From assembly GCA_050012255.1 (NCBI GenBank), contig JBEKHN010000022.1, forward strand, positions 1-31,455: DNA of 31,455 nt. Direction: 5' to 3'. Below, one piece after another: positions 763 through 30,460 of this stretch (within the stretch, counting starts at the first letter, position 1; each line of letters begins with the position of its first letter). Position numbers and translations under genes: made by a program. This DNA comes from Candidatus Bathyarchaeia archaeon (GTDB lineage Archaea; Thermoproteota; Bathyarchaeia; Bathyarchaeales; Bathycorpusculaceae). The notes beneath the pieces were generated by a model. The model had not been told where the DNA came from. It searched no databases and saw nothing but the letters and a program-made list of their open reading frames with translations.

Positions 763-1186
763 ACTGAATATTACATAAGACGCAGTATACTTGAATGTAT
801 CCTAGCCCACAATTTCCGAGTTACAAAAACTACGGCAAACAGTTTGGTCTTTCTTTAACACAGCTCCATCTCAAGGTCTTTAATGAACGCTATGCAGTCT
901 TTTCTTGGAATACTTGCCCCCCCTAGTATTTTTTCCGAGCTTCAAAGAGTCTCCCTGCCGAAGCTTAAACCTCTGCAGAGAGAGCGCGCGCTACGACGAA
1001 GACCCGCAAGAACACAAAATATGAGATTTGCGCTATTTCCCAACTTTGTCCGAATGTTTTTTCTTCTTTTGAACATTCTTCTTCTTCAATGAAGGCATAC
1101 ACTAATCTCCACGAAACAATACTACCTATTAACAATATAGGCTACTAATGTTTAAGAAACTTTCACCAATTAGAACTCCATGAGTT

Positions 1187-1300
1187 GGAAGAAAATGGTG
1201 GAGTTGCAGGAGAAATCGTCAAGTTAGTGTTGAATAGCTGAACTACACTACTGCGTCGGTATATCTCGACTTGATACGATCCTGCAAAATGGCTTCTTCC
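1187..1300. other. Nested inverted repeats / candidate structured RNA
   Basis: GGAAGAA(1187)/TTCTTCC(1294), TTGCAGG(1204)/CCTGCAA(1281), ATCG-TCAAGT(1215-1224)/ACTTGA-TA-CGAT(1269-1280), TAGTGT(1225)/ACACTA(1245). Confidence 0.4.
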
Positions 1301-1337
1301 TTGCCCTAGTTTAGCGGACTTGAGCCCGTCTGGATAT

Positions 1338-1357
1338 GAGCCCGGTCCGGCCCACCA
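1338..1357 (+). pseudogene. tRNA 3'-end-like fragment
   Basis: GAGC-CCGGT-CCGGCCC-A-CCA fits T-loop end, T-stem, acceptor strand, discriminator and CCA. No matching GGGCCGG 5' half was seen upstream. Confidence 0.35.
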
Positions 1358-1448
1358 ATCAACAAAACTAATATCTACTCAGGTGACTTGAAAAAAGAAT
1401 ATAAAAACGGGGAGAAAACCAATCTTAGAATAGAGCTGTTGGCTTGAT

Positions 1449-1598
1449 CTAGTATTGGCTTCTTCTTGGGGGTGCTCTCTTAGCGTAACATTCTCGGCAG
1501 TATACTGGTCTGCTGCCATCAGGCTTGAATGGCACTTCACATTCCTTTTTGCATTCAGCGCAAACTGCCTTGTGCATTTCTTTTCTCTCATATGTCAA
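1449..1598 (-). CDS. CxxC-x17-CxxC domain small Zn-finger protein
   Basis: MHKAVCAECKKECEVPFKPDGSRPVYCREC is the family signature. TTG start at 1598 with AAGGAG 9 nt upstream (ATG at 1577 is the alternative). Confidence 0.9.
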   Translation of the reverse strand: MTYERKEMHKAVCAECKKECEVPFKPDGSRPVYCRECYAKRAPPRRSQY

Positions 1599-1864
1599 CT
1601 CTCTCAACTCCTTTACGGTTGCTGTGCAAAAATCACTTCTTACACGCTGCACCTACCCTTCACACCGATACTTATAAACAAAATGCCTCATAAATCATAA
1701 AGCCTAGACTCATAGAGTCTGAATCAGAGATCAACAGACGCCCGCGCCCCACTATTACAGAAAATCTTTATGTATCACCCGCCACGCAGCGCGCGCTTAA
1801 CAGAGCCGGCAAGCAGTTGTCAAATCACAAAAAATCCTTAAGCGAAAAGTTCCATTCTAGAATT

Positions 1865-2014
1865 ATGGAAAGAGTCAAGGTCATTTGGAGTGGTCCTTAT
1901 TCAGTGGACTCAGCAATGGAGAAATTCAGAAACTATGACGATTTTGGAATCTACATGATAACACAACTCAGTCTTCTACAGCGAAGAAGCAACTGCTCTT
2001 CGCAGCTGCCTTGA
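1865..2014 (+). pseudogene. N-terminal fragment of a GIY-YIG-like nuclease
   Basis: MERVKVIWSGPYS...DDFGIYMIT resembles the W-x-GPY...GIY start of archaeal GIY-YIG proteins. The YIG half is missing and the frame ends shortly afterwards. Confidence 0.45.
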
Positions 2015-2167
2015 CCATTGAGCAGTCCTATGAAGAATTGAGAAAACCGAGTATATGATATAGAGTCGGTTTGCCTTGGTTTCCATAGGACAGTCTAAGC
2101 AGGCTAAGACGTTGGTGCAAGCGCGCGTGCAAGAGAGCAAAATCGCTGCGTTCGCTCGGCGCGAGAT

Positions 2168-2281: not shown

Positions 2282-2465
2282 AAACAGACTCTCAATACTC
2301 TAATGAACTTCTTTCTCATTAAGTCTTGGATTTTGTCGGAGCGTGCAGTCCGGGCGCGCGCTTGTGGATGGTGCGAAGGGAAACCGTGAACGGGATGATG
2401 TTGGATGACCTATTCAAAACTCTTTTATCGACGCGGCGTTGATCGAGAGTTTGGAGAGAGGACTG

Positions 2466-4322
2466 TTGCGGAAGACTCGTTCTGGGGTGATGCTGGTGTT
2501 GCTTCTATGCTTGTCTTTTGTAGGCTTCGCTTGTAGAACTCAGATAGCAAGGTCAGCACCAAGCGTATTGACCAATGGAGATTTTGAGACTGGAACATTG
2601 AACGGATGGAATGTTCTAGGAACCTGTGCAATCAGCAGTACCATAGTCCATAGTGGGTCATATTCAGCATACGTTTCAGATGTAGGTTATGATAACTGGG
2701 TATCGCAAGAATTGAATCTGCCCGCAGGCAATGACTATCATTTCGAGGGATGGATTTACCCGTTGAAAGTGGGAAATCTAGGCCCAGTCGATTATCCAGC
2801 ATCTTTCTTGTATTTCTGGTATTACAACAAATCATCGATGCTGCCTGCATTCCATGTTAACTATGTTTGGTGCTGGAATGATTGGAATTCTGTAGGTAAT
2901 GGTAATTATTCAAGCGCACTGGAGTTCTTGCTACCCTTCAATCAGTTGGAATGGAATCTTCTTTCGATAAATCTGACAGAAGACGTCCGCTCATACTTTG
3001 TGGGAATCGACCTCTCCCAATTCATACTGCATAGCGTAACAGCGCAATATCATTATTCCAATGGTTCTCCGGGTGCCTTCTATGTTGATGACATCTCTCT
3101 TAGCGCGCGCGTTCCTTATGTGAATGGGACCATTTTCATTCGTGATTATGGAAGCGTTGACCAATCAACAGCGCCGATTTCGACCGTTGACAATATCACT
3201 TACACGTTTGCTAACAACATTAATGGCTCAATCGTCGTGCAGAAGGATAGCATCGTGCTTGACGGGGCTGGCTACACCCTCCAAGGACCTGGAAGTGGAG
3301 AGGGAATAGAGCTTTTCCAAAGAACAAATGTGACGGTTCGGAATACACAAATCACAGCCTTCGATTACGGCATCGCGCTCGGCTTCTCTTCCGAGAACAC
3401 TATTTCCAACAACAACCTAACAGCCAACCATTTTGGCATCGATCTCTCTTTCTCCCACAGGAACATTATTTTTGGAGACACCGTAACAGGCACCATAGGG
3501 TATGCATCTATCCATCTGGTTAACTCTGCAAGTAACAGCATCTTTGGGAACAACGTGACAGCGAACTGCTTTGACGGCATCTGGCTCGATTCCTCCTCGA
3601 ATAACCTTATTTCAGGAAACAACCTAAGTGCAAACGGCAGCTGTGGCATCGAATTCTGGGGTTCTTCTTTTCCCTTCGGTTCAGACTACAATACTATCTC
3701 AAAGAATGATATATCATTTAACAATGGGGTAGGCATTTCGCTTTCTCACTCTTCAAACAGCAGCATTTTCGAAAACAACCTAACAGCAAACAGCGGGTAT
3801 GGCATCTATCTCTATTCTTCTTTTGGCAACAGCGTAAGCCGAAACAACCTAACAGCAAACAACCTTAACATTGGGATCGGTAGCTCCTCAAGCAACATGA
3901 TATGTCATAACAACCTCGTAGACAACGGCCAGCAAGTGTCCATTGAAGCAGGTTCAGTAAATGCTTGGGACAACGGGTATCCATATAGCGGAAGCTACTG
4001 GAGTGACTATAATGGCACAGATCTGTTCAGAGGTCCGTACCAGAATGAAACAGGGGGCGACGGTATAGGAGATACACATTACATTATCGACAGCAACAAC
4101 ACAGATAACTACCCACTGATGCAACCTTGGCGATGCATTTCTGGCGACGTTAACGGTGACGGCACTGTTGACATCTACGACGCCATACTGCTATCTGGCG
4201 CCTTCAACTCCCAGCTAGGCAGTGCAAAGTGGAACCCTAACGCGGACATCAACGGCGACGGCATCGTCGACATCTACGACGCCATAATACTCTCAGGCCA
4301 CTTCAACCAGCACTACCCATAA
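2466..4322 (+). CDS. Secreted/surface protein: signal peptide, CBM-like beta-sandwich, NosD/PbH1 parallel beta-helix, C-terminal dockerin type I
   Basis: Basic then hydrophobic N-terminus (TTG at 2466 after GGAGAGAGG); LTNGDFETG...GW and FYVDDISL (CBM4/9-like); many GIxLxxSxxNxIxxNN repeats; WDNGYPxSGxYWSDY..GDGIGD; duplicated DVNGDGTVDIYD/DINGDGIVDIYD. Confidence 0.85.
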   Translation: MRKTRSGVMLVLLLCLSFVGFACRTQIARSAPSVLTNGDFETGTLNGWNVLGTCAISSTIVHSGSYSAYVSDVGYDNWVSQELNLPAGNDYHFEGWIYPLKVGNLGPVDYPASFLYFWYYNKSSMLPAFHVNYVWCWNDWNSVGNGNYSSALEFLLPFNQLEWNLLSINLTEDVRSYFVGIDLSQFILHSVTAQYHYSNGSPGAFYVDDISLSARVPYVNGTIFIRDYGSVDQSTAPISTVDNITYTFANNINGSIVVQKDSIVLDGAGYTLQGPGSGEGIELFQRTNVTVRNTQITAFDYGIALGFSSENTISNNNLTANHFGIDLSFSHRNIIFGDTVTGTIGYASIHLVNSASNSIFGNNVTANCFDGIWLDSSSNNLISGNNLSANGSCGIEFWGSSFPFGSDYNTISKNDISFNNGVGISLSHSSNSSIFENNLTANSGYGIYLYSSFGNSVSRNNLTANNLNIGIGSSSSNMICHNNLVDNGQQVSIEAGSVNAWDNGYPYSGSYWSDYNGTDLFRGPYQNETGGDGIGDTHYIIDSNNTDNYPLMQPWRCISGDVNGDGTVDIYDAILLSGAFNSQLGSAKWNPNADINGDGIVDIYDAIILSGHFNQHYP

Positions 4323-4338: not shown

Positions 4339-4344
4339 GGCGTG

Positions 4345-7156: not shown

Positions 7157-7164
7157 ACGCGCGC

Positions 7165-7338
7165 GGCCACTGAAACATTGAAAGCACACTAGTTTGCACT
7201 CAACTCATCAGCTTTGAAAGCGACGAATACCACTCAGCAGTTGCCAGTACAGTCGAAGAGGCAAGGAAGCTCCTTGAACAAGGCTTTGAGTACGTATGCC
7301 AGAAGGATGACATAATGCTGTTCAGAAAGAGGAAGTAG
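7165..7338 (+). pseudogene. C-terminal remnant of a tyrosine recombinase/integrase
   Basis: Translates as GH*NIESTLVCTQLISFESDEYHSAVASTVEEARKLLEQGFEYVCQKDDIMLFRKRK*. This is the LGH...T..Y box with an in-frame TGA (7171) and TGC at the catalytic Tyr position (7195), plus the GFEYV..LFRKRK tail I recognise from archaeal integrases. Confidence 0.8.
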
Positions 7339-7343
7339 CCTCA

Positions 7344-7397
7344 TAGCAAAAACATGGTGTAAACTGGCCAGTTATAGTGTAAATTCCCATTTGCACC
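7344..7397. repeat. Direct repeat copy 2 (att-like), overlapping the 3' end of the gene at 7372-7920
   Basis: Matches 4345-4400 and contains the palindrome AACTGGCCAGTT. Confidence 0.9.
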
Positions 7398-11427: not shown

Positions 11428-11997
11428 ATGACAGAGGATAAGCTTGTCCTAGGTGTCGCAGGAATGCCTGGGTCAGGCAAATCCCTAGTAGTTGAACTCG
11501 CGCAGAAAGAAAAAGGCTACGAAGCCGTCGCAATGGGTGACGTTGTCAGAGAGGAAACAAAGAAGAGAAACCTGCAACCGACACCTGAAAACATCGGAAA
11601 GGTGATGCTTGACCTGAGACAGAAAGACGGAAGCGCGGTCATCGCGAAGAGATGCGTTCCAAAAATAGCCGGCATAAAGGGACAGAAAGTGATCGTGGAC
11701 GGAATAAGAAGCCTAGATGAAATCGAAGAATTCAAAAAACACTACTCAATATTCAGCCTGATCGCCATCCATGCTTCTCCGGACACACGATTCCAACGCC
11801 TGTACCACCGCCGCAGAAGCGACGATGCGAGCCATTGGAAGGTCTTCCTTGAAAGAGACACGCGAGAGTTGAGCGTCGGTTTGGGCAGCGCCATAGCCAT
11901 GGCCGAAGAGATGGTTGTAAACGAGGAACCATTCGATGTTGTGAAGGGCAGAATTAGAAGAATCTTGGAGAAAGTTGAGAACAAATGGAGGAAGTAA
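11428..11997 (+). CDS. P-loop nucleotide kinase, archaeal dephospho-CoA kinase-like (UPF0200)
   Basis: GMPGSGKS, MGDVVREE, VDGIRS, RDTRELSVGLG. Confidence 0.85.
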   Translation: MTEDKLVLGVAGMPGSGKSLVVELAQKEKGYEAVAMGDVVREETKKRNLQPTPENIGKVMLDLRQKDGSAVIAKRCVPKIAGIKGQKVIVDGIRSLDEIEEFKKHYSIFSLIAIHASPDTRFQRLYHRRRSDDASHWKVFLERDTRELSVGLGSAIAMAEEMVVNEEPFDVVKGRIRRILEKVENKWRK

Positions 11998-12386
11998 GCG
12001 TCCACATCGAGGTCGAGGTCAACCTAACGGAATCTGAACAGAAAGTGAAGGAGGCAGTCGAAAACATTTTTGGAGCAATGAACATGCAGACAAAGTCCCT
12101 GCGCAAAGGCAGCCTCCTACTCGCAGAAGCAACAGGACAAGAAGCGCTCGCCAAGTTTCACAACATACTGCAAAGAGAACACATCCGCGCCGCAGCACGG
12201 GCAGTGCTCCTCCAAGGATTAGAAAGAACAAGCGTTAACTTCTGCCTGAACAAACAGGTGGCATACGCAGGCCACGTTTCCTTCTCACAAGAAGTAGCCG
12301 AGTCTCCGCTAGGACCGATAAAAGTGAAAATAAAGTCCGAGAACCCCCGACAAGTCGTTGACTGGCTCACCGCAATGAATCCATGA
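11985..12386 (+). CDS. DUF54/UPF0201 RNA-binding domain protein
   Basis: TESEQKVKEAVENIF, LNKQVAYAG, ESPLGPI; overlaps the kinase stop. Confidence 0.85.
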   Translation: MEEVSVHIEVEVNLTESEQKVKEAVENIFGAMNMQTKSLRKGSLLLAEATGQEALAKFHNILQREHIRAAARAVLLQGLERTSVNFCLNKQVAYAGHVSFSQEVAESPLGPIKVKIKSENPRQVVDWLTAMNP

Positions 12387-13418: not shown

Positions 13419-13780
13419 GGGGCGCGTGCATCACCCAGAACGGAGCCCGATAAGAGTCAAGGTCAGACGGTAAAGTCAAGAAAAGAAAGGCATGTTTCGA
13501 GTAATGAAGTAGGTAAACCTATCTGACCCAAGAGACCACAGGGACAGAATGTGAAATGTGCTATTGACTAGCATGCTTCGATTTCTGCAAGTAGCAGATC
13601 GCCATTGCACTAGTCAGTATCATGACCAAGTTCATGCCTGGAAGATACTCATCAGCCAAGCTGATATGCCACACACGCGGAAAAGACAAACCTCGCATAT
13701 TCTCAATCTACATTCTGACTTCACAAATCTCTTCAACGCAAACGTAGACTAGAATCGAACGATGTCGTAAGTGAACCAAA

Positions 13781-14020
13781 ATGAGGCACGTAGCGTCTTA
13801 TTATGCGATTGGTTTTGCAATCGTGGGCTGTCTCATGCTGTACGCTCACTTCTCAACGTTCATTTCGATGGTATCCAACAATTATGATCCTTACGTCACT
13901 CCGGTGCTAGCAACCGCAATGTTATTACCCTTTGTGATTGCAGTGTTCTCTTGGCGAGACTGGAGAGAAACACAAAGGAATAAGGACACAGAAGGAGGAG
14001 CTGAATACGAAGGCGCGTGA
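13781..14020 (+). CDS. Small membrane protein (two TM helices)
   Basis: 79-aa ORF with two hydrophobic segments and a charged tail. Confidence 0.5.
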   Translation: MRHVASYYAIGFAIVGCLMLYAHFSTFISMVSNNYDPYVTPVLATAMLLPFVIAVFSWRDWRETQRNKDTEGGAEYEGA

Positions 14021-14519
14021 GCTTTGGACCGGTAAACCTTGGATACTTCCCAACGTGCTGGCTAGAAGCATTTTAGCTGCCCTAGCAGCCGTTGTGATTT
14101 CTTGGCTCGAATTCTATCTTAATGTGGAGAGCAACTCACAAATTCTGAATTTACCTATAATATTGTGGACGGCCTTGGCAATTTTCCTAGTCTGGGTACT
14201 CAGCTTGACGCACTTGTTGGTCCTGAGGGCTTCAAACACGTACATTCTTAGAAACGATGGTCTAGAAGTGAGGACTGGAATATTAACCTCAAAATCGTTC
14301 GTAGTCGCTCCTGCGGGCTTTTCAGACCTAGAGGTAACTAGATCGGTTTCAGGAAGAATCGTGAATTCTGGAAACATAACCATTCGTACGCAAGGTGACA
14401 GCGACATAAAGATGGCAAAAGTCAGAAAGCCGTTGAAAGTCGCTGACCAAATAAGGGAAGTCATGGCGAGACCAACAGTCAGAATAGAAGGACAAGAACC
14501 GATCACGGAAAAGAAGTGA
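13938..14519 (+). CDS. Membrane protein with bacterial PH (bPH_2) domain
   Basis: LWTGKPW, two TM helices, then YILRNDGLEVRTGIL...GNITIRT...ADQIRE. The true start is probably near 14001. Confidence 0.75.
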   Translation: MQCSLGETGEKHKGIRTQKEELNTKARELWTGKPWILPNVLARSILAALAAVVISWLEFYLNVESNSQILNLPIILWTALAIFLVWVLSLTHLLVLRASNTYILRNDGLEVRTGILTSKSFVVAPAGFSDLEVTRSVSGRIVNSGNITIRTQGDSDIKMAKVRKPLKVADQIREVMARPTVRIEGQEPITEKK

Positions 14520-14773
14520 TCGGAACAATCGCTCAACGAAAAACACCGCGCTTTCTGGACAGATCAGTTGAAATTGTCTGCAACGCACGCGTTGCTGCTC
14601 TTGAATCATTCTTGCCTTTCTGATCACCGAATCTGATAGTTTTCTTTTCCCCTCCGGCCCTTCTTCGCTATCATCATTGTAAACTCAGCTCCTTTCCCAG
14701 AAGCGCGCGGTCAGGGCCTCGATCACTGTACGCCTAAGAGGCTGAAGGCACTATTTCTTAACACGCAATTCTC

Positions 14774-15512: not shown

Positions 15513-16799
15513 ATGGCAAGTATGAACAAATCATCCTTGGTTTCGGGCTTCTACAAACTGAGTCCAAAAGAACGTTTAGCGTTTGTTAAAGAATTCTCCA
15601 ATCTGACGGACGAAGAAGCCGCTTTACTCCAGAATACAGGTTCTCTTCCTCTCGACCTCGCTGACCGCATGATAGAAAACGTCGTCGGCGCCATTCCGAT
15701 ACCTCTAGGAATGGGCGTCAACTTCCTAATCAACGAACGTGATTACTTGATTCCCATGGCTATTGAAGAGCCTTCAGTCGTGGCAGCTGCGAGCTACGCT
15801 GCGAAGATGGTGAGGGACGGAGGAGGCTTTCACACAAGCAGCACACTGCCCATCATGATCGGACAAATACAAGCCGTAGGCATCAAAGACCCCTACGCCG
15901 CTAAGATGCGCGTGATACAGGCGAAAGACGAAATCCTGAGAAAAGCCAACGACCAAGACCCACTGCTGGTCTCAGCCGGAGGCGGCGCAAGAGACCTAGA
16001 CGCAAGAGTAATTGGCACCGAGCAAGGCCCCATGCTCATAACCGAACTGCACGTCGATTGCCGAGACGCCATGGGAGCAAACGCAGTCAACACAATGAAT
16101 GAAGCAGTAGCGCCATTAATCGAACGCATAACAGGCGGACGCGTCTACCTCCGAATAATCTCCAACCTAGCGACAAAACGCCTGGTCAGAGCCTCATGCG
16201 TCGTGCCGAAGAAATCCGTGGGCGGCGAAGAAGTCGTGGACGCAATCGTGAGCGCGTACGCCTTCGCAGCAGCAGACCCCTACCGTGCAGCGACTCACAA
16301 CAAGGGAATCATGAACGGCATAATAGCCGTGATAGTCGCAACAGGCAACGACCACCGCGCAATCGAAGCGGGGGCCCACGCGTACGCAGCTGTCAGCGGC
16401 CACTACACGTCGCTGTCAACCTGGGAGAAAAACGAGAACGGTGACCTCGTAGGCTCAATTGAACTGCCTATGGCAGTCGGCCTCATAGGCGGAGCCGTTA
16501 AAACTCATCCGATTGCAAGAATCGCCGTCAAGATTCTAGGAGTGAAGACTGCCAACGAGTTCGGCGAGGTGTGTGCGGCTGTTGGTCTGGCACAGAACCT
16601 CGGAGCTCTTCGTGCATTGGCTCATGAAGGGATACAGCGTGGACACATGTCACTGCACGCGAGAAACATAGCTGTAATGGCAGGTGCCACAGGCGAACTT
16701 ATCGACAAAGTCGCAGCGAAGATGGTTGAAGAGCGTAAGATTCGAATGGACAGAGCCCAAGAACTACTGGACAAGTACAAGGCAACTGGAAAAATCTAA
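15513..16799 (+). CDS. mvaA: Hydroxymethylglutaryl-CoA reductase, class II (degradative/bacterial type)
   Basis: MIENVVG, EEPSVVAA, DAMGANAVN, RAATHNKGIMNG, GIQRGHMSLH; RBS GAGGAG. Confidence 0.93.
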   Translation: MASMNKSSLVSGFYKLSPKERLAFVKEFSNLTDEEAALLQNTGSLPLDLADRMIENVVGAIPIPLGMGVNFLINERDYLIPMAIEEPSVVAAASYAAKMVRDGGGFHTSSTLPIMIGQIQAVGIKDPYAAKMRVIQAKDEILRKANDQDPLLVSAGGGARDLDARVIGTEQGPMLITELHVDCRDAMGANAVNTMNEAVAPLIERITGGRVYLRIISNLATKRLVRASCVVPKKSVGGEEVVDAIVSAYAFAAADPYRAATHNKGIMNGIIAVIVATGNDHRAIEAGAHAYAAVSGHYTSLSTWEKNENGDLVGSIELPMAVGLIGGAVKTHPIARIAVKILGVKTANEFGEVCAAVGLAQNLGALRALAHEGIQRGHMSLHARNIAVMAGATGELIDKVAAKMVEERKIRMDRAQELLDKYKATGKI

Positions 16800-16830
16800 A
16801 AAGCCACAACAGACGCATCTAGACTCGGCG

Positions 16831-17724
16831 ATGAAAGTGAAGGTTATACCAGGACCTGCATCCAAAGATTTGGGCGAAAAACTAGCCAAACAGTTGAACG
16901 CAGAAGTCATACCTGTTTTCCTGAAAATCTTTCCTGACGGGGAATCCTACATCCGCTTCGAATCCAAATCACTGAAGAACGAAGACATCGTCATCGTCCA
17001 GACCACGAGCCCACCACAGGACCAGAGACTGATCCAGCTACTTCTGATGGCCGACAACGCAAAGGACATGGAAGCCAAGAGCATCAAGGCGGTCGTTCCA
17101 TACTTCGCCTACAGCCGCCAAGACAAACGATTCCTACCAGGCGAAGCCTTCAGCACAAAAACCATAGTGAAACTGCTCGAGGAATGCGGCGTCAACAAAA
17201 TCATAACCGTCAACGCCCACAACCCAGCCGTCCTGAAAACCTTCGAAATCCCTGTCCATGACCTATCAGCCATCTCGCTTTTAGCCCAGTATTTCAAGAC
17301 AAAAAAGCTCGTACAAAACCCGCTTTCGCTCTCCATGGGCAAAAAGGCCATAAGCGTCGCCCAGGAAGCCGATAGCATTCTGCACGGAGGCTACGATTAC
17401 GTTGCATCAAAAAGAGACGTCGTGACAGGCAGCGTTACGCTTGAACCCAGACCCTTACAGGTCAAGGACCGCGACGTCATAATCTTCGACGACATAATAA
17501 GCAGCGGGGGAACGATGGCCAAGGTTGTAAAGCTCGTGAAAGACAAAGGGGCAAAAAAGGTTTATGCGGCTTGCGTGCACCCGTTGCTCATCGGCGACTC
17601 ACAAAAAAGAATCATGGAGAACGGCGCTGAAGAAATAGTAGGCACAGACTGCGTCCAGAGCCCCGTAAGCAAGGTTTCAGTCGCTCCGCTCATAAGCCAA
17701 GTGCTCATGCAAGAAGGAGCATGA
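16831..17724 (+). CDS. prs: Ribose-phosphate pyrophosphokinase
   Basis: FPDGESYIR, PYFAYSRQDKRF, DDIISSGGT. Start trimmed to the ATG at 16831. Confidence 0.93.
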   Translation: MKVKVIPGPASKDLGEKLAKQLNAEVIPVFLKIFPDGESYIRFESKSLKNEDIVIVQTTSPPQDQRLIQLLLMADNAKDMEAKSIKAVVPYFAYSRQDKRFLPGEAFSTKTIVKLLEECGVNKIITVNAHNPAVLKTFEIPVHDLSAISLLAQYFKTKKLVQNPLSLSMGKKAISVAQEADSILHGGYDYVASKRDVVTGSVTLEPRPLQVKDRDVIIFDDIISSGGTMAKVVKLVKDKGAKKVYAACVHPLLIGDSQKRIMENGAEEIVGTDCVQSPVSKVSVAPLISQVLMQEGA

Positions 17725-18764
17725 GCGTGGCCAACCTCTTCTTCCTGCTTTCAGGCGAGCATGAAGACCTACCTGTTTCTGAGCTCAAGGCAATACTCGA
17801 GACAGAGGACTACGCATACGGGGTCAGGGAGAAGCTTGACCAAGTTCTAAGACTGGAAGCCGACCCAAACTGCATAGAGGTTCTAAAACACAGAGCAGCC
17901 TTAACAAGGCTCTGCGCAATGGAACTCTTCACCTGCGAGGCAGAAACGAGCAGCATAGTCAAAGCCTTATCATTAGCAAGGCTCGACCAAGCTTTAAGAG
18001 AAAACGAAAGCTTTGCAGTTCGAGTCAAACACGTCAAAGCCCACGCCTCAGAGATAGACGGAATGATGCTCGAAAAGAAGCTCGGCGAACTCATACTTCG
18101 AAACATGCCCAAGGTCCGAGTCAAACTGAAAAACCCTGACAAAACGCTCGTTGGGATACTGACAAGCGAGAAATTCATCTTCGGCCTAAAACTTGCTGAA
18201 ATCCCGGCGACACCGTTCGTCCAAAGACGCCCCAGAAAGAGACCCTTTTTCCATCCGTCAGCCATGCAAGCGAAACTTGCAAGATGCATGGTAAACTTGG
18301 CACAACCGAAGACTGGAGACCTAGTTCTAGACCCCTTCTGTGGAACAGGAACCACGCTCATTGAAGCTGCGCTAGTCGGCTGCCGCGCCCTAGGCCTCGA
18401 CGTGCAACGTCGCATGGCAAGGGGAACTCTTAGAAACGTGACACACTTCGGCATCAAGCCCGAAGGCGTGGTCGTCGCAGACGCGAGAAGCCTGCCTCTG
18501 AAGAAAGTCGATTGCGTCGTGACGGATCCACCGTACGGCACGTCTTCAACCACCCTGAAACGCACGACGAAACAAGTCATCGAAGAAGTGCTGACCGCCG
18601 TCTATGGACTGCTGAAAAATGGAAGAAGAGTCTGCATGGCCGCGCCTAGAAAGCTGAACATTGTCCAAGTCGGAACGGGCTTGGGCTATAAGCATATAGA
18701 GTCCCATTTCGTCTATGTTCACAGAAGCTTAACCCGAGAAGTCGTCGTGTTCGAAAAGGTGTAG
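17721..18764 (+). CDS. trmG10: THUMP-domain tRNA (guanine-10-N2)-methyltransferase, Trm11/TrmG10 family
   Basis: LSGEH, RPFFHPS, LARCMVNL, LDPFCGTG, TDPPYG, VHRSLTR. Confidence 0.88.
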   Translation: MSVANLFFLLSGEHEDLPVSELKAILETEDYAYGVREKLDQVLRLEADPNCIEVLKHRAALTRLCAMELFTCEAETSSIVKALSLARLDQALRENESFAVRVKHVKAHASEIDGMMLEKKLGELILRNMPKVRVKLKNPDKTLVGILTSEKFIFGLKLAEIPATPFVQRRPRKRPFFHPSAMQAKLARCMVNLAQPKTGDLVLDPFCGTGTTLIEAALVGCRALGLDVQRRMARGTLRNVTHFGIKPEGVVVADARSLPLKKVDCVVTDPPYGTSSTTLKRTTKQVIEEVLTAVYGLLKNGRRVCMAAPRKLNIVQVGTGLGYKHIESHFVYVHRSLTREVVVFEKV

Positions 18765-18768
18765 CCCC

Positions 18769-19689
18769 TTGAGTCTACGCGTTGTTTTCCTAGGAACAGC
18801 AGCCGGTGTTCCAACACTCAAGAGGAGCTTACCTGCGATACTGGTCCAACGCGACGGTGAACAGCTCATGTTCGACTGCGGCGAAGGCGTCCAGAGACAG
18901 ATGCTGATGGCCGGAGCAAGCCTCAACAGGACGACAAGGGTCTTCGTAACACACATGCACGGAGACCACGTCATGGGACTTCCAGGGCTACTGCAGACCA
19001 TGGCCCTGCTCGGCAGAGAAAAAAAACTCGAAGTCTACGGACCCCCGAACATCAGAGATTTCCTGCACGGCATCAGGGAAACAGTCCAGTTCGTCCTAAC
19101 GTTTCCAACAGAAATCCACGAGATAGAAAGGCCAGGCGTTGTCTGCCGGGAAGACGAGTACACCGTTCAGGTCGTCCGGTCGAAGCACGTGATACCGAGC
19201 TTCGCCTACGGTTACGTTGAGAAACCAAGACCTGGGAGATTCTACCCTGAAAAAGCCAAGGCTTTAGGCTTGCCAGAAGGCCCTCTGTGGTCAAAGCTTC
19301 AGCGCGGACAGAGAGTCAAGCTGCCAAACGGGCGTGTCATCAAACCGGAAGAAGTGATGGGCCCGCCTAGACAGGGCAGAAAAATAGTCTACACGGGCGA
19401 CACCCGGCCTTTCAAGCGTCTTGAAAAATTCGCGGCCAACGCAGACCTGCTGATACACGACTCGACGCTGGGCGACGAGCTGGCTGAAAGAGCAGAGAAG
19501 TATGGACATTCAACCGTAGACCAAGCCGCCGAGAGTGCAAAGAAGGCAAAAGTCAAGCAGTTGATACTGACACACATCAGTCAAAGGTACGAAGACACGA
19601 GCACGTGGCTGAAACAGGCGAGAAAGATTTTCAAGAACACTGCGATGGCGGAAGACTTCATGCAAGTAGAGATTCCGCTTTTAGAGTAG
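18769..19689 (+). CDS. rnz: Ribonuclease Z
   Basis: FLGT, DCGEG, THMHGDH, exosite GLPEGP, YTGDT, GHST, THISQRY. Confidence 0.95.
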   Translation: MSLRVVFLGTAAGVPTLKRSLPAILVQRDGEQLMFDCGEGVQRQMLMAGASLNRTTRVFVTHMHGDHVMGLPGLLQTMALLGREKKLEVYGPPNIRDFLHGIRETVQFVLTFPTEIHEIERPGVVCREDEYTVQVVRSKHVIPSFAYGYVEKPRPGRFYPEKAKALGLPEGPLWSKLQRGQRVKLPNGRVIKPEEVMGPPRQGRKIVYTGDTRPFKRLEKFAANADLLIHDSTLGDELAERAEKYGHSTVDQAAESAKKAKVKQLILTHISQRYEDTSTWLKQARKIFKNTAMAEDFMQVEIPLLE

Positions 19690-20457
19690 CAGCTGCTTCA
19701 GCTTCTGCATGCTCTCCTCGATGTGCTCAACAGACTCAAGAATCACGATTCCGTCGAAAGAAGTCTTCTTCAACAAGTCTGCAAAGCTTTGCCAGTTGAT
19801 GCTGCCGTAGCCTATGCCCAGATGCTGGTCCACTTTCCCAAGGTTGTCCTGAGCGTGCACGTGCACAAGCTTGTCCGATAACTCTGTTAGAAAACCGTCC
19901 ACTTCTCCGCTGAGGTTCGCGTGCCCAGTGTCCAAGGCCAACCCCACTTCTTCGTTCAGCTCACTGTAGAACCGCTTGAACTCAGCCACGCTTTTCAAGA
20001 CAAACGGTTCCATAACGTTCTCTATCGCCGTCTTCACGCCGTGCTCATTCGCAAACTTGAACAGGAGCCGAACGCTCTCCAGATTCCTAGTCCAGTCCAT
20101 GCCGGGATAGAACATGCTGACGCCAGCTTTCATCCCTGGGTGGAAGACCCAAAGTCTACAATCTAAACCTGCAGAGTTAGCGATCGACTCCTCCAGCCTC
20201 TTCATCGTCGCGTTCAAAAGTGCCTTATCCTGCAAGGATATGTTGATGCCAGTGAACGGCGCGTGAACCGTGTACTCCACGTCATAAGAATCCCTGACGC
20301 TCTTCAGTGCCAAAACTCTCTTCTCGTCAAGGACGTGAGCACCGTCATCCACAACCTCCACGTACCTCGCCCCCGTCTTAGGAATCTCCTCTACCATCCT
20401 CTCGAAAGGTTCGCCAATAGTGTAGAGCATCGACAAGCCAATCTTCGGATTCGCCAA
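19681..20457 (-). CDS. Sugar phosphate isomerase/epimerase (xylose isomerase-like TIM barrel)
   Basis: VHAP, FHPG, IEN, LDTGHA, HVH.QDN..DQHLGIG.G. Confidence 0.85.
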   Translation of the reverse strand: MANPKIGLSMLYTIGEPFERMVEEIPKTGARYVEVVDDGAHVLDEKRVLALKSVRDSYDVEYTVHAPFTGINISLQDKALLNATMKRLEESIANSAGLDCRLWVFHPGMKAGVSMFYPGMDWTRNLESVRLLFKFANEHGVKTAIENVMEPFVLKSVAEFKRFYSELNEEVGLALDTGHANLSGEVDGFLTELSDKLVHVHAQDNLGKVDQHLGIGYGSINWQSFADLLKKTSFDGIVILESVEHIEESMQKLKQLLL

Positions 20458-20701
20458 GGAAACGTCCCATCCGTATTCGGCTGGATTCTACATGTTGACA
20501 CGCATCCTTATAACACAATCTCAAACCTAGACACGCTTGCCCCATGGCTCCTACGACATCCCGCAGACGCAACGTTCTCCTCGTCAAGTCCTCCTTGAGT
20601 AGCAAAGCTGAGGACTGGCAATCAAGTGGAAAGGGGACAGGCGTTTTAGCCCGGCTCTGAACGGGCAAATGAAACCAGAAGATGGCGTGACAGTGGAGTG
20701 T

Positions 20702-20876
20702 ATTGAAAAGTTACTACCCTTGCCAGACTCTCTGCCAAACGCTCTGCACACGGTCGGCATCGAGCCCGCGCTTAGCCACTAGGGCCTTCACCAGCGCCTA
20801 CGTGCAGTACTAGTACCCTAGGGGGGAGGGGGAGGGTGGAATAGACGGGGCCAAAACGCGAATACAGGGATGTAGC
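20702..20876 (+). repeat. Dispersed repeat family B, copy 1 (G-rich core)
   Basis: 20795-20876 matches the reverse complement of 30118-30199 at 79/82 nt; weaker similarity continues back to about 20702. Confidence 0.92.
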
Positions 20877-20878
20877 AT

Positions 20879-21013
20879 ATGCTGAAGGTCACAGCGAGAG
20901 GAATCAGCCAAACACCGACAATAGTAATCGGCCAAAATTGGATCGAAGCACCGTCCAACGTAGACCGGCTCAAGGAGAAGCTAGAATCCTACCTCAAACA
21001 AGCCAACCCTTAG
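20879..21013 (+). pseudogene. Thioredoxin/glutaredoxin-like C-terminal fragment
   Basis: MLKVTARGISQTPTIVIGQNWIEAPSNVDRLKEKLESYL...; GI..TPTIVI resembles the cis-Pro loop, but there is no CxxC. Confidence 0.4.
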
Positions 21014-21974: not shown

Positions 21975-21983
21975 GCCACTCCA

Positions 21984-25840: not shown

Positions 25841-26032
25841 GACTAGTTGAACTCCAATGTCAGAGGGAATAAGCATGGAGTCATAGGTAAAAAGATTTTG
25901 GACAGCGTAAGCAGGAGAATTCAAGAAGATTGATGTTGCAAGCATGTGCTAACTGACGTAGCGTTCTAGACAAGAAGGAATAGGAAAACTGTGAGTAGCG
26001 CAGCGCGCTGGCTTGCCCCTAAATTCGCTGAT

Positions 26033-26134
26033 AGCGCGCGTAAGAGCATATACGTTTTGCATATACAGCGGACGAGCATCGTTGAAAACGGTGAGGCCGT
26101 TCACGTTGGATCCGGAGCTACGTGGCTGTTCAAA
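26033..26134 (+). repeat. Dispersed repeat family A, copy 2
   Basis: Shares 23 identical nt (GCATATACGTTTTGCATATACAG, 26046-26068) and about 70 nt of further similarity with the reverse complement of 14774-14903. Confidence 0.8.
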
Positions 26135-26167
26135 CGCGCACGCATAATAAAGGGACAAGGCAGCGCG

Positions 26168-27493
26168 CTACTTGGACTTGGTTATGTGCACGTTTTTCAC
26201 CAGGACGTATGGGCTTAGCGACGGTGGGTCTGCTTCCTCCCACCAGTGGACGTGCTGCCTCTCTCTTGAAACACCCGCAATGTTGCCAAGCATGGCTAAT
26301 GCGTTATCGCTTATTCGCAGGTCTTTAAGCGACCGTTTAATCTCTCCCCTTTCTACGAGGAAGATGCCGTCTCTGGGGATAGTGGAGAAATCACCCTTCG
26401 CGGAGTTTTGGAAGCGCGTGTACCACGTGTTAGTCAGGTAAAGCCCTCTCTTCATTTCTTTGAAGAGTTCTTCTCTGCTCGCGTCTCCAGGTTCCATTTC
26501 TGTATTCCACGGAGTTGGAGCAATCAGGCCCGCGTTGCCAGTTGTCTTGGTCTTGAAGATCTTCGCTGTGGACGCGTTATGAAGATAGGTCTTGAAGGAG
26601 CCGTGGTCTATGAAAGTGTTCTCTCTTGTGGGAACACCTTCATCGTCGAAGACCCTGTTGGACAGTGAGTAGGGGGCAGGGTTGTCCTTCAACGTGACGA
26701 TTTCTGGCGCCACATTCTTGCCGAGCTTGTCAACGAATATGGATGTCCGTGTCATAATCGAGTAGGCTGAAGCCATCCTGGCCCAAACTCCGAGGAGAGA
26801 ACCGAAAATCAACGGGTCAAAGACAACATTATAAACGCCTTCATCGCCTAAACTTGGGTTCTTAGCTATCTTGGCAATCTCGCCAGCCTTTGCCCCTGCC
26901 CTAGAAGGTTCAAACTCTTTCAGCGTTGAGCTGCATTCAACGCCGTGCCCCGAGGCTTCTCTCTGTGAAAAAGCCCTGATAGAAAGCTCGATCGCTGATC
27001 TCGTGTCCACGCAGGTCGGTCCTTCAGAAGAAGCGAGGTAAACGTTCTCAAATTTGGCAAAGAGTATGCCACCGCTTTCGACCTTTGATCCAGCCTCTTT
27101 CTTGGCGGCTTCTATCGCTGCAGAAACGTGATCCGTCAGGTTCTCAAGATTTTCAATCTTCTTGTCGGCCCTGCTCTTCGCGTAGCGAAAAGTGCCTTTT
27201 GCGAAGCCTCCGAAGGTTGGATTTTCTTCAGAAACCTTAACAAGCTTCATCAGTTGCTTGAGGCTGGCATCGGATTCGCGGAAGTCGTGTATCTGTGTTG
27301 CAACTACGCGTTTCTTCCAGGCTAGGATCACATCAGTGGCATAATCGTTCCAGGCAACGGTGATGTCTGTTTGGTTGTTGCTGAAGCGGACCTGACGGTA
27401 CTTGCCAAAGACTGTACTGGCGATAACTTCGTCAGCGCCTAGCGCTTTCGCTTTCTTGATTATCTCTTCCGTTTCACCCATTGCATCGATCAT
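26168..27493 (-). CDS. pmbA: TldE/PmbA family protein
   Basis: VRFSNN, FDDEGVP, TTGNA, GDFS; lacks HExxxH; ATGA-coupled to tldD. Confidence 0.88.
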   Translation of the reverse strand: MIDAMGETEEIIKKAKALGADEVIASTVFGKYRQVRFSNNQTDITVAWNDYATDVILAWKKRVVATQIHDFRESDASLKQLMKLVKVSEENPTFGGFAKGTFRYAKSRADKKIENLENLTDHVSAAIEAAKKEAGSKVESGGILFAKFENVYLASSEGPTCVDTRSAIELSIRAFSQREASGHGVECSSTLKEFEPSRAGAKAGEIAKIAKNPSLGDEGVYNVVFDPLIFGSLLGVWARMASAYSIMTRTSIFVDKLGKNVAPEIVTLKDNPAPYSLSNRVFDDEGVPTRENTFIDHGSFKTYLHNASTAKIFKTKTTGNAGLIAPTPWNTEMEPGDASREELFKEMKRGLYLTNTWYTRFQNSAKGDFSTIPRDGIFLVERGEIKRSLKDLRISDNALAMLGNIAGVSRERQHVHWWEEADPPSLSPYVLVKNVHITKSK

Positions 27494-28908
27494 TTCATGA
27501 ACACCGCTCTAAGTCTAAGCCACGGGCCACCTGTGTACACTTGTGCCCCTTGTTCAGGGTCGCCCTTGCCGCATGTAGCCGAGTCAAACTCAACTTTCTT
27601 GGATACACCGTCGACAGCAGTCCAGAACTTCTGCGTGGTCGTTTCAACAACGGGTCTCGCAACAGGATGGGTCAATTCACCGTTTTTTATCATGTATGCT
27701 TCTCTGCCAACGTAGCGTTGGTTGAAGCGCTTGTCATCGATGTTCCATTCAGTGAAGGATTTCATGCAGACGCCATACTTGATGTCTTCAATCAGCTCCT
27801 CGTCGGTCAGTTCGCCAGGAAGCACGAACGTGTTTGCCATGCGCACTATGGCTTCTCGGTCGTAATTTTCGGATCTTGAAGAACCGTTGCTTCGCGTGTT
27901 CATCTTCGCGGCTGATTCTCTGTTGTGCAGGAACTCGTTTATGACGCCTTTCTTGTACAGAAACCTGCGTCTGGCCTTGACTCCTTCATCATCATACAGG
28001 TAGTACCCGTAACTGTTCTCGATCGTGGGGTCGTCGACGACCGTGACAGCGTCGCTACCGATTCTTGTGCCGATCCAGTATGGGCCGCCCTTGTAGATGA
28101 AGGATCTTCCTGCTTGGCTCATTTCTCGGCCTAGGATTCTGTCAGCCTCCATGGGGTGGCCGCAGGATTCATGTGCTGCTATTCCTGCAACTTCGGGGCC
28201 GCAGACCAGGTCCATCTTTTCAGGTTTCAGGACTTTTGCTTTTGTTATGACGGTTCTGAGCACTTTTGCGTCGTGAACCATTTTTTCCGCGATCTTCCAC
28301 TCATCGAAGGCTTCCCATCCGCCACTGTAGCCGAACTGTTCTGAAGCCTGCTCAGTCTTTCCACTCTCTGCGACTGCGATGAAGAAATACGCGCCGATCT
28401 TCGGAAGGCGGGATGATATGCGCGATCCTTCCGAGTTTACGAAATACTTGGTTATCAGGTTTATCGAACACTGCGACGTTGTAGCCGCGATCTTGACACC
28501 GCAGGACGTCAAAGCCCTGTTGACTTCAGTGAGGGTAGCCACTCTTTCTTCAGTTGGAACGTTCTCGATCTTCTTTTTTTGGTCAGCAGTCCAGCTTGTC
28601 CTAACCGCCTTCTCTTTGGCAAAGAACAGCTTGTCTTTTCGATTTGCAGCCCCCGCGTATTTGAACGCCAGGTCCACAACGTCTCTCGCCTCGCTCTTTG
28701 ACCACTTGTTCGTCGATGCGAAGCCGATTCCTCCGTTTGCCATGATCCGCACGCAGAACCCGCTGTCCACAGCCTCTGCGTATACTTCCAGGATTCCGTC
28801 TCTCAGCACCATCCTGTCCAATGCTTGGCTCTGGCCTCCAACTTCGGCGTACTCGACCTTCTTGCTCTGTGCATACTCTAAGGCGTAATCAATGATGTCC
28901 CGTTCCAT
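27490..28908 (-). CDS. tldD: TldD metalloprotease
   Basis: HESCGHPMEADR, DDPT, YDDEGV, VRMANT, CGKGDP. Start trimmed to the ATG at 28908. Confidence 0.92.
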   Translation of the reverse strand: MERDIIDYALEYAQSKKVEYAEVGGQSQALDRMVLRDGILEVYAEAVDSGFCVRIMANGGIGFASTNKWSKSEARDVVDLAFKYAGAANRKDKLFFAKEKAVRTSWTADQKKKIENVPTEERVATLTEVNRALTSCGVKIAATTSQCSINLITKYFVNSEGSRISSRLPKIGAYFFIAVAESGKTEQASEQFGYSGGWEAFDEWKIAEKMVHDAKVLRTVITKAKVLKPEKMDLVCGPEVAGIAAHESCGHPMEADRILGREMSQAGRSFIYKGGPYWIGTRIGSDAVTVVDDPTIENSYGYYLYDDEGVKARRRFLYKKGVINEFLHNRESAAKMNTRSNGSSRSENYDREAIVRMANTFVLPGELTDEELIEDIKYGVCMKSFTEWNIDDKRFNQRYVGREAYMIKNGELTHPVARPVVETTTQKFWTAVDGVSKKVEFDSATCGKGDPEQGAQVYTGGPWLRLRAVFMK

Positions 28909-29144
28909 GCTGTTCCAACCTTTAGGCTGACATTCTAGAACGAGGAGGAATAAAACGTTTGAGTTGCGCGGCCCGTTTTGATGGCTTTCATCCGGCGTCT
29001 CAGCTGCTTTGATGTAGCGGTTTGCGGAAGCAGGCACTTATGCATGGTCGTTGAACAGGCGCTCCTTGGACAGGGATCAATGGAAAGTTATTTATCTATC
29101 ATCATGAGAAACCATGGATACGGAAACATATGGGAGGAAATTAA

Positions 29145-29315
29145 GTGGCTAAATGTCCAAAGTGCGGAACTGAAGTTTCAAAACCAAAGAAAACGTGGAC
29201 GATGGCTGGGCGCCCAGACAAGGCGGGAAAAAGGATTCAGCTGGAGATCGGACTTTTCGAGTGTCCAAAGGATCACAAGGTGTTCAGGGAAGTTCTGAAC
29301 AAGAAGAAGATTTAG
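29145..29315 (+). CDS. Cren7-like chromatin protein with Zn-ribbon ligands (56 aa), not in the ORF track
   Basis: MAKCPKCGTEVSKPKKTWTMAGRPDKAGKRIQLEIGLFECPKDHKVFREVLNKKKI*; P-x-K-x-W, IGLF-x-x-P and FR match Cren7 hallmarks. RBS GGAGG at 29133, TATA-like TTATTTA at about 29088, pyrimidine/T tract downstream. Confidence 0.85.
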   Translation: MAKCPKCGTEVSKPKKTWTMAGRPDKAGKRIQLEIGLFECPKDHKVFREVLNKKKI

Positions 29316-29426
29316 ACGAGAAACTCTGACGGCTCTTTCGTCTATCCTCCTTTCCCCTCTTTTTCATTTTTTGAAAGCGTTAAGTTTTAAAGCTCCACTG
29401 TTCTTGTTCAACAGGCAACTTCAGCC

Positions 29427-30104
29427 ATGGAAGGTCGATCATTGTCAGCGTTAAGACTTGGGCGTTTGTGGAGAGACGATTCTTTCCAGACCGCCGTGAT
29501 GATTTTCTTCATAGTCTCGGTTGTCTTCGGGTTTTGGTACGGCTCGCGTCTCTTTTTGGACACGCAGTATCCGATGCTCGCTGTGGCTTCTGGAAGCATG
29601 AGCCTTCCTAAAGGCGTGGTTGATGATGGGTGGTCCCGCCCGTTTGGACCGACGCTTCACACTGGAGATCTGATCGTCGTTGAAGGAGTGAATCCACAAG
29701 ACGTTTACGCAGCGCCATACAATGCGAGCGGGCGCTCAGGCGACATCCTCGTGTTTCGTGCTATTGGAAGCGACGATCTGATCGTGCACAGAGCCATAGG
29801 AAAAAACGTGGGAAGCGACGGTCAGGTCGTGGCGTTCATAACTCAGGGTGACGGCAATGACCAGACTGGACCTTACTCGCCGACTCCCGTAGAGAACGTT
29901 ATCGGTAAGGTCGTTATGCGGATTCCATGGATCGGACACGTTGCGCTTTTCATGCGCAACTCCACCGGGATACTTGTAATACTTGTCCTCATAATGGTCC
30001 TGATCGTCGTCGAATTTGCCCTTCCAGCGGTGATAGGCAAGAAACCTGCTGATGAGAAGGGCAAGCGCATCGAAAAGGCTCCTGAACTTGAAGGTCCCAC
30101 GTGA
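29427..30104 (+). CDS. Signal peptidase I (archaeal Sec11/SipW type, S26)
   Basis: TM, VASGSM, GDL, IVHR, TQGDGN, VIGKV..IPWIG, C-terminal TM. Confidence 0.92.
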   Translation: MEGRSLSALRLGRLWRDDSFQTAVMIFFIVSVVFGFWYGSRLFLDTQYPMLAVASGSMSLPKGVVDDGWSRPFGPTLHTGDLIVVEGVNPQDVYAAPYNASGRSGDILVFRAIGSDDLIVHRAIGKNVGSDGQVVAFITQGDGNDQTGPYSPTPVENVIGKVVMRIPWIGHVALFMRNSTGILVILVLIMVLIVVEFALPAVIGKKPADEKGKRIEKAPELEGPT

Positions 30105-30117
30105 CACTTCAGCGAGC

Positions 30118-30293
30118 GCTACATCCCCGTATTCGCGTTTTGACCCCGTCTATTTCACCCTCCCCCTCCCCCCTAGGGTACTAGTACTGCACGTAGGCGT
30201 TGGGCAAGGCCCTACTGGATTTGTGGGGGCATGAGGCCGAGCGCGTCCCGAGGGTTTGGCAGAGGATCTGGGCAAGGGTCGTAACTTTTCAAT
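30118..30293 (-). repeat. Dispersed repeat family B, copy 2
   Basis: Inverted copy of 20702-20876. Confidence 0.92.
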
Positions 30294-30460
30294 GTTCTCG
30301 ACCGTCGCCCATCCTAAGTGGGCGCTCTTGTGTGGTCGAAGGTCTGTCTGGCGTTTGTGCTATGGATGGAGCGCGCGCGAGATAGTGTTTGTCTCAAAAA
30401 GTTTGCAGGTTCAGGATAGGCTCTTTCTTGCTAGAAAAGTGCGGTTTGTGTCGAACGTTG

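Follow-up and report, generated by a model that had tools for sequence, protein, structure and literature searches.

The window analysed here is the whole contig C22 (JBEKHN010000022.1; 31,455 bp) of G000, a 2.35-Mb, 38-contig assembly of a Candidatus Bathyarchaeia archaeon, and our subject is a population of short, uninterrupted runs of alternating G and C (hereafter, (GC)n runs) that occur in this contig and throughout the genome. We read the 7–10-nt runs as junction filler, i.e., as scars of illegitimate joining that were newly written at the joints, an interpretation that we hold with belief and doubt in about equal measure. The weight of evidence favors the runs as products of joining events rather than their cause. 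In the window, 20 overlapping GCGCGC matches form 13 maximal alternating runs of 6–9 nt, compared to a mean of 8.66 matches (standard deviation 3.3, maximum 17) in dinucleotide shuffles of the same DNA, none of which reached 20 in 100 trials. All 13 runs listed in a preliminary description of this contig were recovered: 12 lie outside open reading frames (ORFs; 6,830 bp are non-ORF sequence) and one lies inside an ORF (24,625 bp).

Comparison of G000 with G001, a complete single-contig congener that is ~92–94% identical in aligned DNA, and with 400 kb of a second congener, G007, provided the main evidence. From 231 pairs of adjacent colinear anchors, we extracted 96 clean indels, defined by ≤20 nt on one side and ≥30 nt on the other. 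A run was present at the joint of the short allele in 35 of these 96 (≥7 nt in 29 and 6 nt in 6 more), compared to a background of 3.7% of random non-coding 30-nt windows (binomial P = 7e-19). For 27 of the 35 scar indels, neither end of the long allele carried a run, and these 27 long alleles comprise 81–3690 bp of unique DNA that is mutually unrelated. Scars were seen in both directions (short allele in G000 or in G001), with explicit joint fillers such as ACGCGCGC, TTCGCGCGCGA, GCGCGCGC, and AGCGCGCGCT. The lengths of the scar runs (6 nt: 6; 7 nt: 4; 8 nt: 13; 9 nt: 8; 10 nt: 4) have a mode of 8 and a maximum of 10, and scar runs share both their length spectrum and their preference for A and T flanks with runs genome-wide. 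Replacement events show the same association in that 42 of 132 have a run at one border or more, corresponding to 52 of 528 borders (9.8%, background 3.7%). No run was found at the short-allele joint in 61 of the 96 clean indels, and (GC)n as a general property of indels was therefore rejected. Four clean indels of 1.5–2.7 kb (C2:10758, C5:72147, C10:23679, and C11:3209) show exactly 9 bp of microhomology and no (GC)n; these look like insertions of another insertion sequence (IS) family with a 9-bp target duplication.

The preliminary description proposed that the runs are pre-existing sites, and that recombination between two of them removes or shuffles the intervening DNA and leaves one run behind. 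This model agrees with the presence of identical 8–10-bp repeats about 1 kb apart in non-coding DNA, with the coincidence of breakpoints and runs, and with a few joints that have native GC-rich ends (e.g., C5:77187 and C3:164130). Because about half of the runs (49 of 103) predate the split of G000 and G001, it also predicts a run on at least one end of most long alleles. However, long alleles with runs at both ends, one end, and neither end numbered 3, 5, and 27, whereas 7.9, 17.5, and 9.6 were expected (chi-square 43, P = 4e-10). The extra DNA was bounded by runs on both sides in just 6 of the 96 clean indels, most of which are miniature inverted-repeat transposable elements (MITEs), and no recombinase was linked to the runs. 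We regard recombination between two runs as improbable, the proposed shuffling of cassettes between paired runs is not borne out, and an integron-like or site-specific cassette system was rejected on the same count of run-bounded segments. What survives of the view of runs as recombination or capture sites is the insertion of an IS5-type MITE into (GC)4 (see below), given that most joints have the run only in the short allele.

The coincidence of runs with breakpoints noted in the preliminary description holds at the genome scale. Of 653 ends of homology blocks between G000 and G001, 56 are no more than 3 nt from a run, compared to 3.9 expected from matched random positions (n = 20,000). Just outside the blocks, runs are enriched (99 vs. 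38 expected), and just inside them they are depleted (15 vs. 38); their density is about 3-fold higher in non-coding DNA outside conserved blocks. Both flanks were colinear in G001 for only 103 of 559 mapped runs, compared to 236 of 600 random non-coding controls. Among the 103 colinear runs, 49 are conserved as runs in G001, 34 correspond to a non-run of equal length (often a CpG-to-TpG or CpA variant), 7 to a 6-nt run, and 13 differ by a small indel (e.g., C3:19943, a clean 10-nt (GC)5 vs. nothing). Retention of 49 of 103 at ~92% identity is roughly what we would estimate for neutral decay of an 8-mer.

Across G000, GCGCGCGC is the most over-represented 8-mer, with 434 sites compared to ~27 expected from dinucleotide content, and among the 6-mers, GCGCGC ranks first by observed/expected ratio under a maximal-order Markov model. 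Run lengths (4 nt: 7854; 5: 1735; 6: 517; 7: 171; 8: 201; 9: 123; 10: 63; 11: 2; 12: 2) show a bump at 8–10 nt with a mode of 8, followed by a cliff, whereas AT, AC, AG, GT, and CT runs decay smoothly. The cliff is alike in G001 (8 nt: 267; 9: 130; 10: 56; 11: 2), and five other genomes from three other families show a steep drop from (GC)5 to (GC)6 (49/2, 32/1, 29/6, 46/4, and 177/29). There is a phase preference (GCGCGCGC: 176; CGCGCGCG: 25), and the flanks favor A at position −1 (59%) and T at +1 (54%) with otherwise no consensus. Like dinucleotide microsatellites, the runs are alternating dinucleotides that are mostly non-coding. Unlike microsatellites, they have no long tail (63 at 10 nt vs. 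2 at 11 nt) and a preferred phase, and orthologous differences are presence/absence or substitution, not 2-nt steps; a slippage origin was rejected due to the lack of smooth length decay. For most runs, membership in a longer repeat was likewise rejected, given the missing flank consensus. The flank of a run was repeated elsewhere in the genome for 123 of 560 runs (78 of 600 controls), a second homologous site was missing for 763 of 872 runs, and a search for direct repeats or target-site duplications outside the runs found none above the permutation control.

With a crude ORF-based gene model for G000 (80.6% coding), runs were enriched in non-coding DNA 27-fold (8 nt), 18-fold (9 nt), and 32-fold (10 nt), and other GC-rich palindromes were not enriched. 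Non-coding DNA contains 360 copies of GCGCGCGC, compared to 5.1 (order-1 Markov) or 62.9 (order-3) expected, which confirms the intergenic excess genome-wide; coding DNA, which has an excess of its own (68 vs. 12.8), is taken up below. This concentration in non-coding DNA, together with the palindromic structure and the preferred A and T flanks, could indicate a functional signal under selection, such as a protein-binding site, a transcription signal, or a Z-DNA-forming element. We consider such a signal very unlikely, since runs occur at ~1 per kb whether the neighboring genes are tandem, divergent, or convergent, keep no preferred distance from gene starts or ends, and are enriched in variable rather than conserved DNA. 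The conservation of 49 of 103 colinear runs is also close to the rough neutral estimate. A role as promoter or terminator, in particular, was rejected because of the equal density in all intergenic types and the lack of a preferred gene distance.

The motif is not special to the window or to the genus. All 10 congeners sampled contain 29–464 octamers per genome, and the other genera of the family that were first sampled contain 0–14. In a class-wide sample of 251 genomes, counted by the 10-mer A(GC)4T (the reversed control was near zero), the most motif-rich family, f35, has 13–131 copies in 5 of 5 genomes. Most of family f26 has 16–119 copies, and the motif is also abundant in three further genera of the window's own family and in single genomes of f36, f27, and f29. 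The distribution over the class is patchy. These data also bear on the idea that the runs are assembly or library artefacts at chimeric joins, which might be suspected from the 38 contigs of G000, several of which end in MITE termini. An artefact is nevertheless extremely unlikely: the motif, its length cliff, and many orthologous copies are present in single-contig G001, the motif occurs in 10 of 10 congeners and in other families, contigs from public sequencing runs span runs of the window, with one of them (X5, from another study) showing a MITE-free allele, and an artefact would not avoid coding DNA. Metagenomes from peat, wetlands, and sediment are among those in which the organism is present.

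A further comparison is with HIP1 (GCGATCGC) of cyanobacteria, which like the (GC)n octamer is an 8-nt GC-rich palindrome that is restricted to particular lineages and reaches hundreds of copies in each genome. HIP1 commonly occurs within genes, is spread by base substitution, and is accompanied by cognate methyltransferases; Robinson and colleagues, and Elhai, reportedly observed it at deletion borders. The (GC)n runs differ in being 18–32 times rarer in coding DNA, in appearing as inserted filler at joints, in their hard length limit, and in not tracking C5 methyltransferases. A HIP1-like palindrome created and maintained by substitution through a methyltransferase plus mismatch-repair bias, or shaping by a BssHII-type restriction-modification system, along the lines that the preliminary description suggested, is therefore hardly credible to us. 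It would account for the huge over-representation of an 8-nt GC-rich palindrome and for the many non-conserved runs that differ by CpG-to-TpG or CpA, and G000 does encode two C5 methyltransferases. However, only two of the 11 genus members carry such genes, and complete G001 lacks them. Class-wide, PF00145 matched 36 of 251 genomes (f35: 0 of 5; ~4 of 21 motif-rich genomes; N4/N6 methyltransferases were not searched), and Vsr was found in 0 of 5 genomes. The substitution spectrum bears no signature of 5-methylcytosine hypermutability, because CpG transitions are raised only ~1.3-fold (0.064, compared to 0.050 for C elsewhere), transversions show an equal rise, and the GCGC context makes no difference. 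The two C5 cytosine methyltransferase genes of G000 (C7:4931-5887 and C6:37304-38281) have no counterpart in most congeners and are thus probably mobile restriction-modification or orphan genes.

Some runs belong to a second layer, formed by a MITE of IS5 type. The window copy lies within a 172-bp insertion (Table 1), for which the empty sites in G001 and G007 read GAGT-GCT-TACTT and GAGT-GTC-TACTT, respectively, and a contig of the independent metagenome run X5 joins position 25996 to 26168 with only GC between. Its terminal inverted repeats are GCGCGCTGGCTTGCCCC and GCGCGCTGCCTTGTCCC. Genome-wide, the terminus of the element consists of GCGCGC, 5 nt, and then the core TGTTCCTAAATT, and 87 of 97 core matches with a nearby run keep exactly this spacing. 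G000 contains 107 termini, with 35 paired elements of 162–298 bp plus one of 1620 bp, and G001 contains 68 termini. Long copies encode a DUF772 plus DDE_Tnp_1 (IS5-type) transposase, all of which are broken in G000 and G001. The element therefore has the usual features of IS/MITEs: terminal inverted repeats, a DDE transposase in long copies, and polymorphic insertion. Comparison of filled and empty sites shows (GC)4 becoming GCGCGC-element-GCGCGC (6 + 6), and a triple site has a solo run in G007 and G000 and the element in G001. This fits an element that lands in the middle of a (GC)4 already present and duplicates 4 bp of it, so that every copy is flanked by GCGCGC, the one at 26003-26168 included. 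Several G000 contigs end ~100–240 nt from a MITE terminus (C8:92, C9:87, C15:105, C16:239, and C25:105); the assembly seems to break at MITEs, and MITE and run counts from draft genomes are probably underestimates. The TGGCT-type MITE (14845-14890 and 26045-26075) holds a short tandem repeat of ~13 nt, similar to TATATGCAAAACG, that accounts for the high rank of GTATATGC/GCATATAC and similar words in the list of over-represented 8-mers.

The MITE layer raises the possibility that the runs themselves are excision footprints of cut-and-paste transposons with GCGC ends or a duplicated GCGC target, in which case a solo run would mark the place of an earlier insertion and imprecise excision would produce the deletions. 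Elements flanked by GCGCGC at a fixed 5 nt from the core (87 of 97 termini), their DUF772 plus DDE_Tnp_1 transposase, and the filled (6 + 6) vs. empty (GC)4 sites all lend themselves to this explanation; a bounded footprint length would explain the 10-nt cliff, and the patchy class distribution resembles that of a mobile element. Nonetheless, we judge it unlikely. Termini do not track runs (octamers vs. termini: G008, 254 vs. 0; G009, 359 vs. 2; G004, 128 vs. 0), and whereas 27 of 53 genomes of a motif-poor family contain the transposase subfamily, it was found in none of the 5 from the most motif-rich family. None of 52 exact joints leads into a MITE terminus of the one element family tested, and excision that keeps the duplication would leave 12-nt runs, of which G000 has two. 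In addition, the 6 + 6 vs. 8 arrangement fits insertion into an existing (GC)4, the triple site has solo runs in G007 and G000, and all transposase copies of G000 and G001 are broken. The IS5-type element is a user of the runs and not their source. It resembles IS5-family IS/MITEs in its terminal inverted repeats, its DUF772 plus DDE_Tnp_1 transposase, its 162–298-bp MITEs, and a 4-bp duplication of a palindromic target, but it covers only the element-flanking runs (~107 termini in G000) and not the ~560 solo runs, which also occur in genomes without the element.

Several observations weigh against the reading of the runs as junction filler, and the first set concerns the enzyme that would write them. 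Among the candidate families tested, which were hand-picked, we found no generating enzyme, and none tracks the motif. G000 has a complete non-homologous end-joining (NHEJ) operon at C10:11524-15305 (a LigD-type primase-polymerase at 11524-12261, Ku, and a ligase-3′-phosphoesterase fusion, which together span ~11.5–14.6 kb, followed by a DUF72 gene), and among the relatives first sampled, Ku was present in 8 of the 11 genus members and 1 of 20 others. This association is removed by the class-wide sample, in which Ku occurs in 5 of ~21 motif-rich genomes vs. 65 of 230 others and does not track the motif. Ku is frequent in two families, with 26 of 44 and 25 of 53 genomes positive, and in a single genus of the family to which the window belongs (9 of 13); families f35 and f26 lack Ku. 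Moreover, G016 has an intact operon with a PolDom 66% identical to that of G000, yet contains 7 octamers. In line with the association seen among the first relatives, the LigD-type polymerase gene of G004 is split in two (C10:254484-255225) and its Ku match is shortened, and its 128 octamers in 2.3 Mb are the fewest of the near-complete congeners, 3–4 times below congeners of similar size. Published passages on LigD-type polymerases confirm their terminal-transferase activity but describe no G/C-alternating product. Because Ku does not track the motif, we rate it as unlikely that the operon of Ku, LigD-type polymerase, and ligase-phosphoesterase writes the runs. A second Y-family polymerase paralog occurred in each of the four motif-rich genomes in a contrast set of five, but it was rejected because lineages poor in the motif commonly contain it as well. 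In the same five genomes, searches for PolX palm, Vsr, Prim-Pol, and reverse transcriptase found nothing.

The other reservations concern polarity, coding DNA, and the nature of the joints. The pairwise identities of G000, G001, and G007 are 92.2, 91.9, and 91.6%, and with three nearly equidistant genomes, polarity was assigned by two-of-three parsimony without a root. At C2:65892 and C3:159054, the long allele is contiguous with its flanks in both G001 and G007. At C8:16972 and C12:23346, G007 has its own shorter, run-free allele, which retains ~20 nt of the end of the G001 long allele, DNA that G000 lacks at the place of its run; at the C12 site, 438 nt (G008) and 1554 nt (G009) lie between the same flanks. 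The left flank of C13:56585 is multi-copy and gives no polarity. Where the third genome is usable, the run-bearing allele is thus the derived one; with two clear and two partial cases, this is the thinnest part of the argument. Coding DNA contains 68 copies of GCGCGCGC, compared to 12.8 ± 3.5 after codon shuffling, and this approximately five-fold excess is not obviously explained by a pure indel origin, unless ORFs were miscalled or insertions were in frame. Microhomology of native G/C-rich ends could account for some joints (e.g., C23:1859, where only GC is extra), and an unrecognised transposon family that leaves GC footprints may be the source of the runs.

If the runs are junction filler, the course of events would be as follows. 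Non-coding DNA breaks and is rejoined with loss or replacement of sequence, and a self-complementary (GC)4–5, preferably in the form A-(GC)n-T, is written in at the joint. The run would arise in one step with the deletion, as nucleotides added at the joint, and coding DNA would be poor in runs because joining events there destroy genes. The IS5-type MITE then takes existing runs as insertion targets. On a more speculative level, an undescribed form of DNA-end sealing may operate in several archaeal families, whereby an enzyme extends or bridges ends with a fixed (GC)4–5 linker and leaves an 8–10-nt stamp each time, a proposal that we offer tentatively and consider possible rather than probable. 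Linker length could be set by the enzyme itself, in the manner of CCA-adding enzymes, or by self-templating, and self-complementary linkers would allow any two ends to pair and be ligated. The stamps would constitute a readable genomic record of deletions and replacements, on which a transposon family has since specialized as landing sites.

Parallels to known systems are partial. Ku/LigD NHEJ and the N-nucleotides that terminal transferase adds in V(D)J joining likewise place new nucleotides at a deletion joint. Known end-joining additions are short and variable in sequence, whereas the (GC)n filler is a fixed alternating 7–10 nt, and Ku does not track the motif. The GC clusters of yeast mitochondria and the repetitive extragenic palindromic (REP) and bacterial interspersed mosaic elements (BIME) are GC-rich intergenic palindromes that are optional between strains and tied to deletions or rearrangements. 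These differ in being hairpin-capable units of 20–50 nt that move as a whole, whereas the runs described here are 7–10 nt, have no longer consensus, and are made at deletion joints. A literature search, conducted mostly at the level of database records, found no description of an over-represented (GC)4–5 motif in archaea or of a constant filler at prokaryotic deletion joints.

Within the window, a G001 homology block ends ≤6 nt from 5 of the 13 runs (984, 1789, 2354, 26034, and 26163), and the individual runs and elements are listed in Table 1.

Table 1 Runs and associated elements in the window (positions in the 31,455-bp contig; blocks are stretches of homology to G001)
Feature	Position	Run	Context
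(GC)4 run at joint	984-991		G001 blocks 124-993 (97%) and 918-995 stop here; separate block 993-1716 begins directly after
(GC)4 run at joint	1789-1796		G001 block 1368-1796 ends exactly here; one of 52 exact joints
7-nt run within dispersed repeat	2121-2127		Spanned by G001 matches 1955-2340 and 2010-2362; GGGCGTG in one G001 copy
(GC)4 run ending dispersed repeat	2354-2361		End point of two G001 matches, 2010-2362 and 2141-2360
9-nt run in NosD/dockerin ORF 2439-4322 (627 aa)	3103-3111		Sole window run inside an ORF
8-nt run	7158-7165		Starts 2 nt past P-type ATPase stop codon; G001/G007 synteny begins only at ~7347-7374
7-nt run	14703-14709		In DNA without G001 counterpart; 13429-14966 replaced by other DNA in G001
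Partial TGGCT-type MITE copy ('repeat A'), minus strand	14775-14902		Stops at 9-nt run 14894-14902
(GC)4 run in aligned DNA	15394-15401		Within block 14966-20880; G001 reads GTTGCAACC there
172-bp insertion with IS5-type MITE 26003-26168	25997-26168	GCGCGC at both tips	Absent from G001 and G007
GCGCGC tips of MITE 26003-26168	26003-26008, 26163-26168		Left and right ends
Internal 7-nt run of MITE 26003-26168	26034-26040		
9-nt run	30371-30379		Just past end of G001 synteny (30310); covered by contigs of runs X1 and X2

The single run inside an ORF (3103-3111) is placed between a CBM_4_9 match (residues 43–107) and a NosD match (residues 286–410); at 9 nt it is in frame between the two domains, and matches from other genomes begin shortly past it, at 3126 or 3164. 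The long, TTG-start NosD/dockerin ORF possibly unites two separate gene pieces fused at this run. The gene that ends at 7156, previously taken for an integrase remnant, in fact encodes a full-length P-type cation ATPase, whose domain matches extend to residue 844 of 852. The right tip of the MITE overlaps the stop codon of the PmbA/TldD gene at 26168-27493. 'Repeat A' was described as beginning at runs in both of its copies; the runs are present at both, but the repeat is part of the IS5-type MITE, which has an internal run. Positions 14775-14875 are matched by many G001 and G007 copies, and the DNA beside run 14894-14902 matches the part of the MITE that begins at 26034.

Pfam matches in the window comprise a GTPase, the NosD/beta-helix/dockerin protein, the complete P-type ATPase, BacA, a CCA-adding enzyme, HMG-CoA reductase, phosphoribosyl pyrophosphate synthetase, a THUMP methyltransferase, tRNase Z, an Lhr helicase, and two PmbA/TldD genes; scans against Rfam and for tRNA genes gave no matches in the window. 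A dispersed element of ~190–250 bp (20634-20881 and 30117-30309) has dozens of matches in G001 and G007. It matches both strands of the same locus, and is thus itself palindromic, and has no (GC)n run; the copy at 20634-20881 is present in G000 and G001 and absent from G007. The last ~185 bp of the NosD/beta-helix gene (4137-4322), which encode the dockerin domain, have dozens of matches per congener at 70–88% identity, pointing to a large family of dockerin-bearing surface proteins in these congeners.

Enrichment of a motif at breakpoints can result from rearrangement and need not be its cause, a caution that the (GC)n runs illustrate. The IS5-type MITE clearly exemplifies a transposon whose target sequence is made by its host. 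If they are written at joints, the runs would provide a natural mark of illegitimate recombination in archaea that can be read from sequence, and deletions and replacements could be counted and dated directly from genomes. They would also point to a new end-joining activity with a fixed product in organisms for which homology-free repair of double-strand breaks is barely understood, and if a protein exists that places a defined, self-complementary linker on DNA ends, it would be of practical interest.

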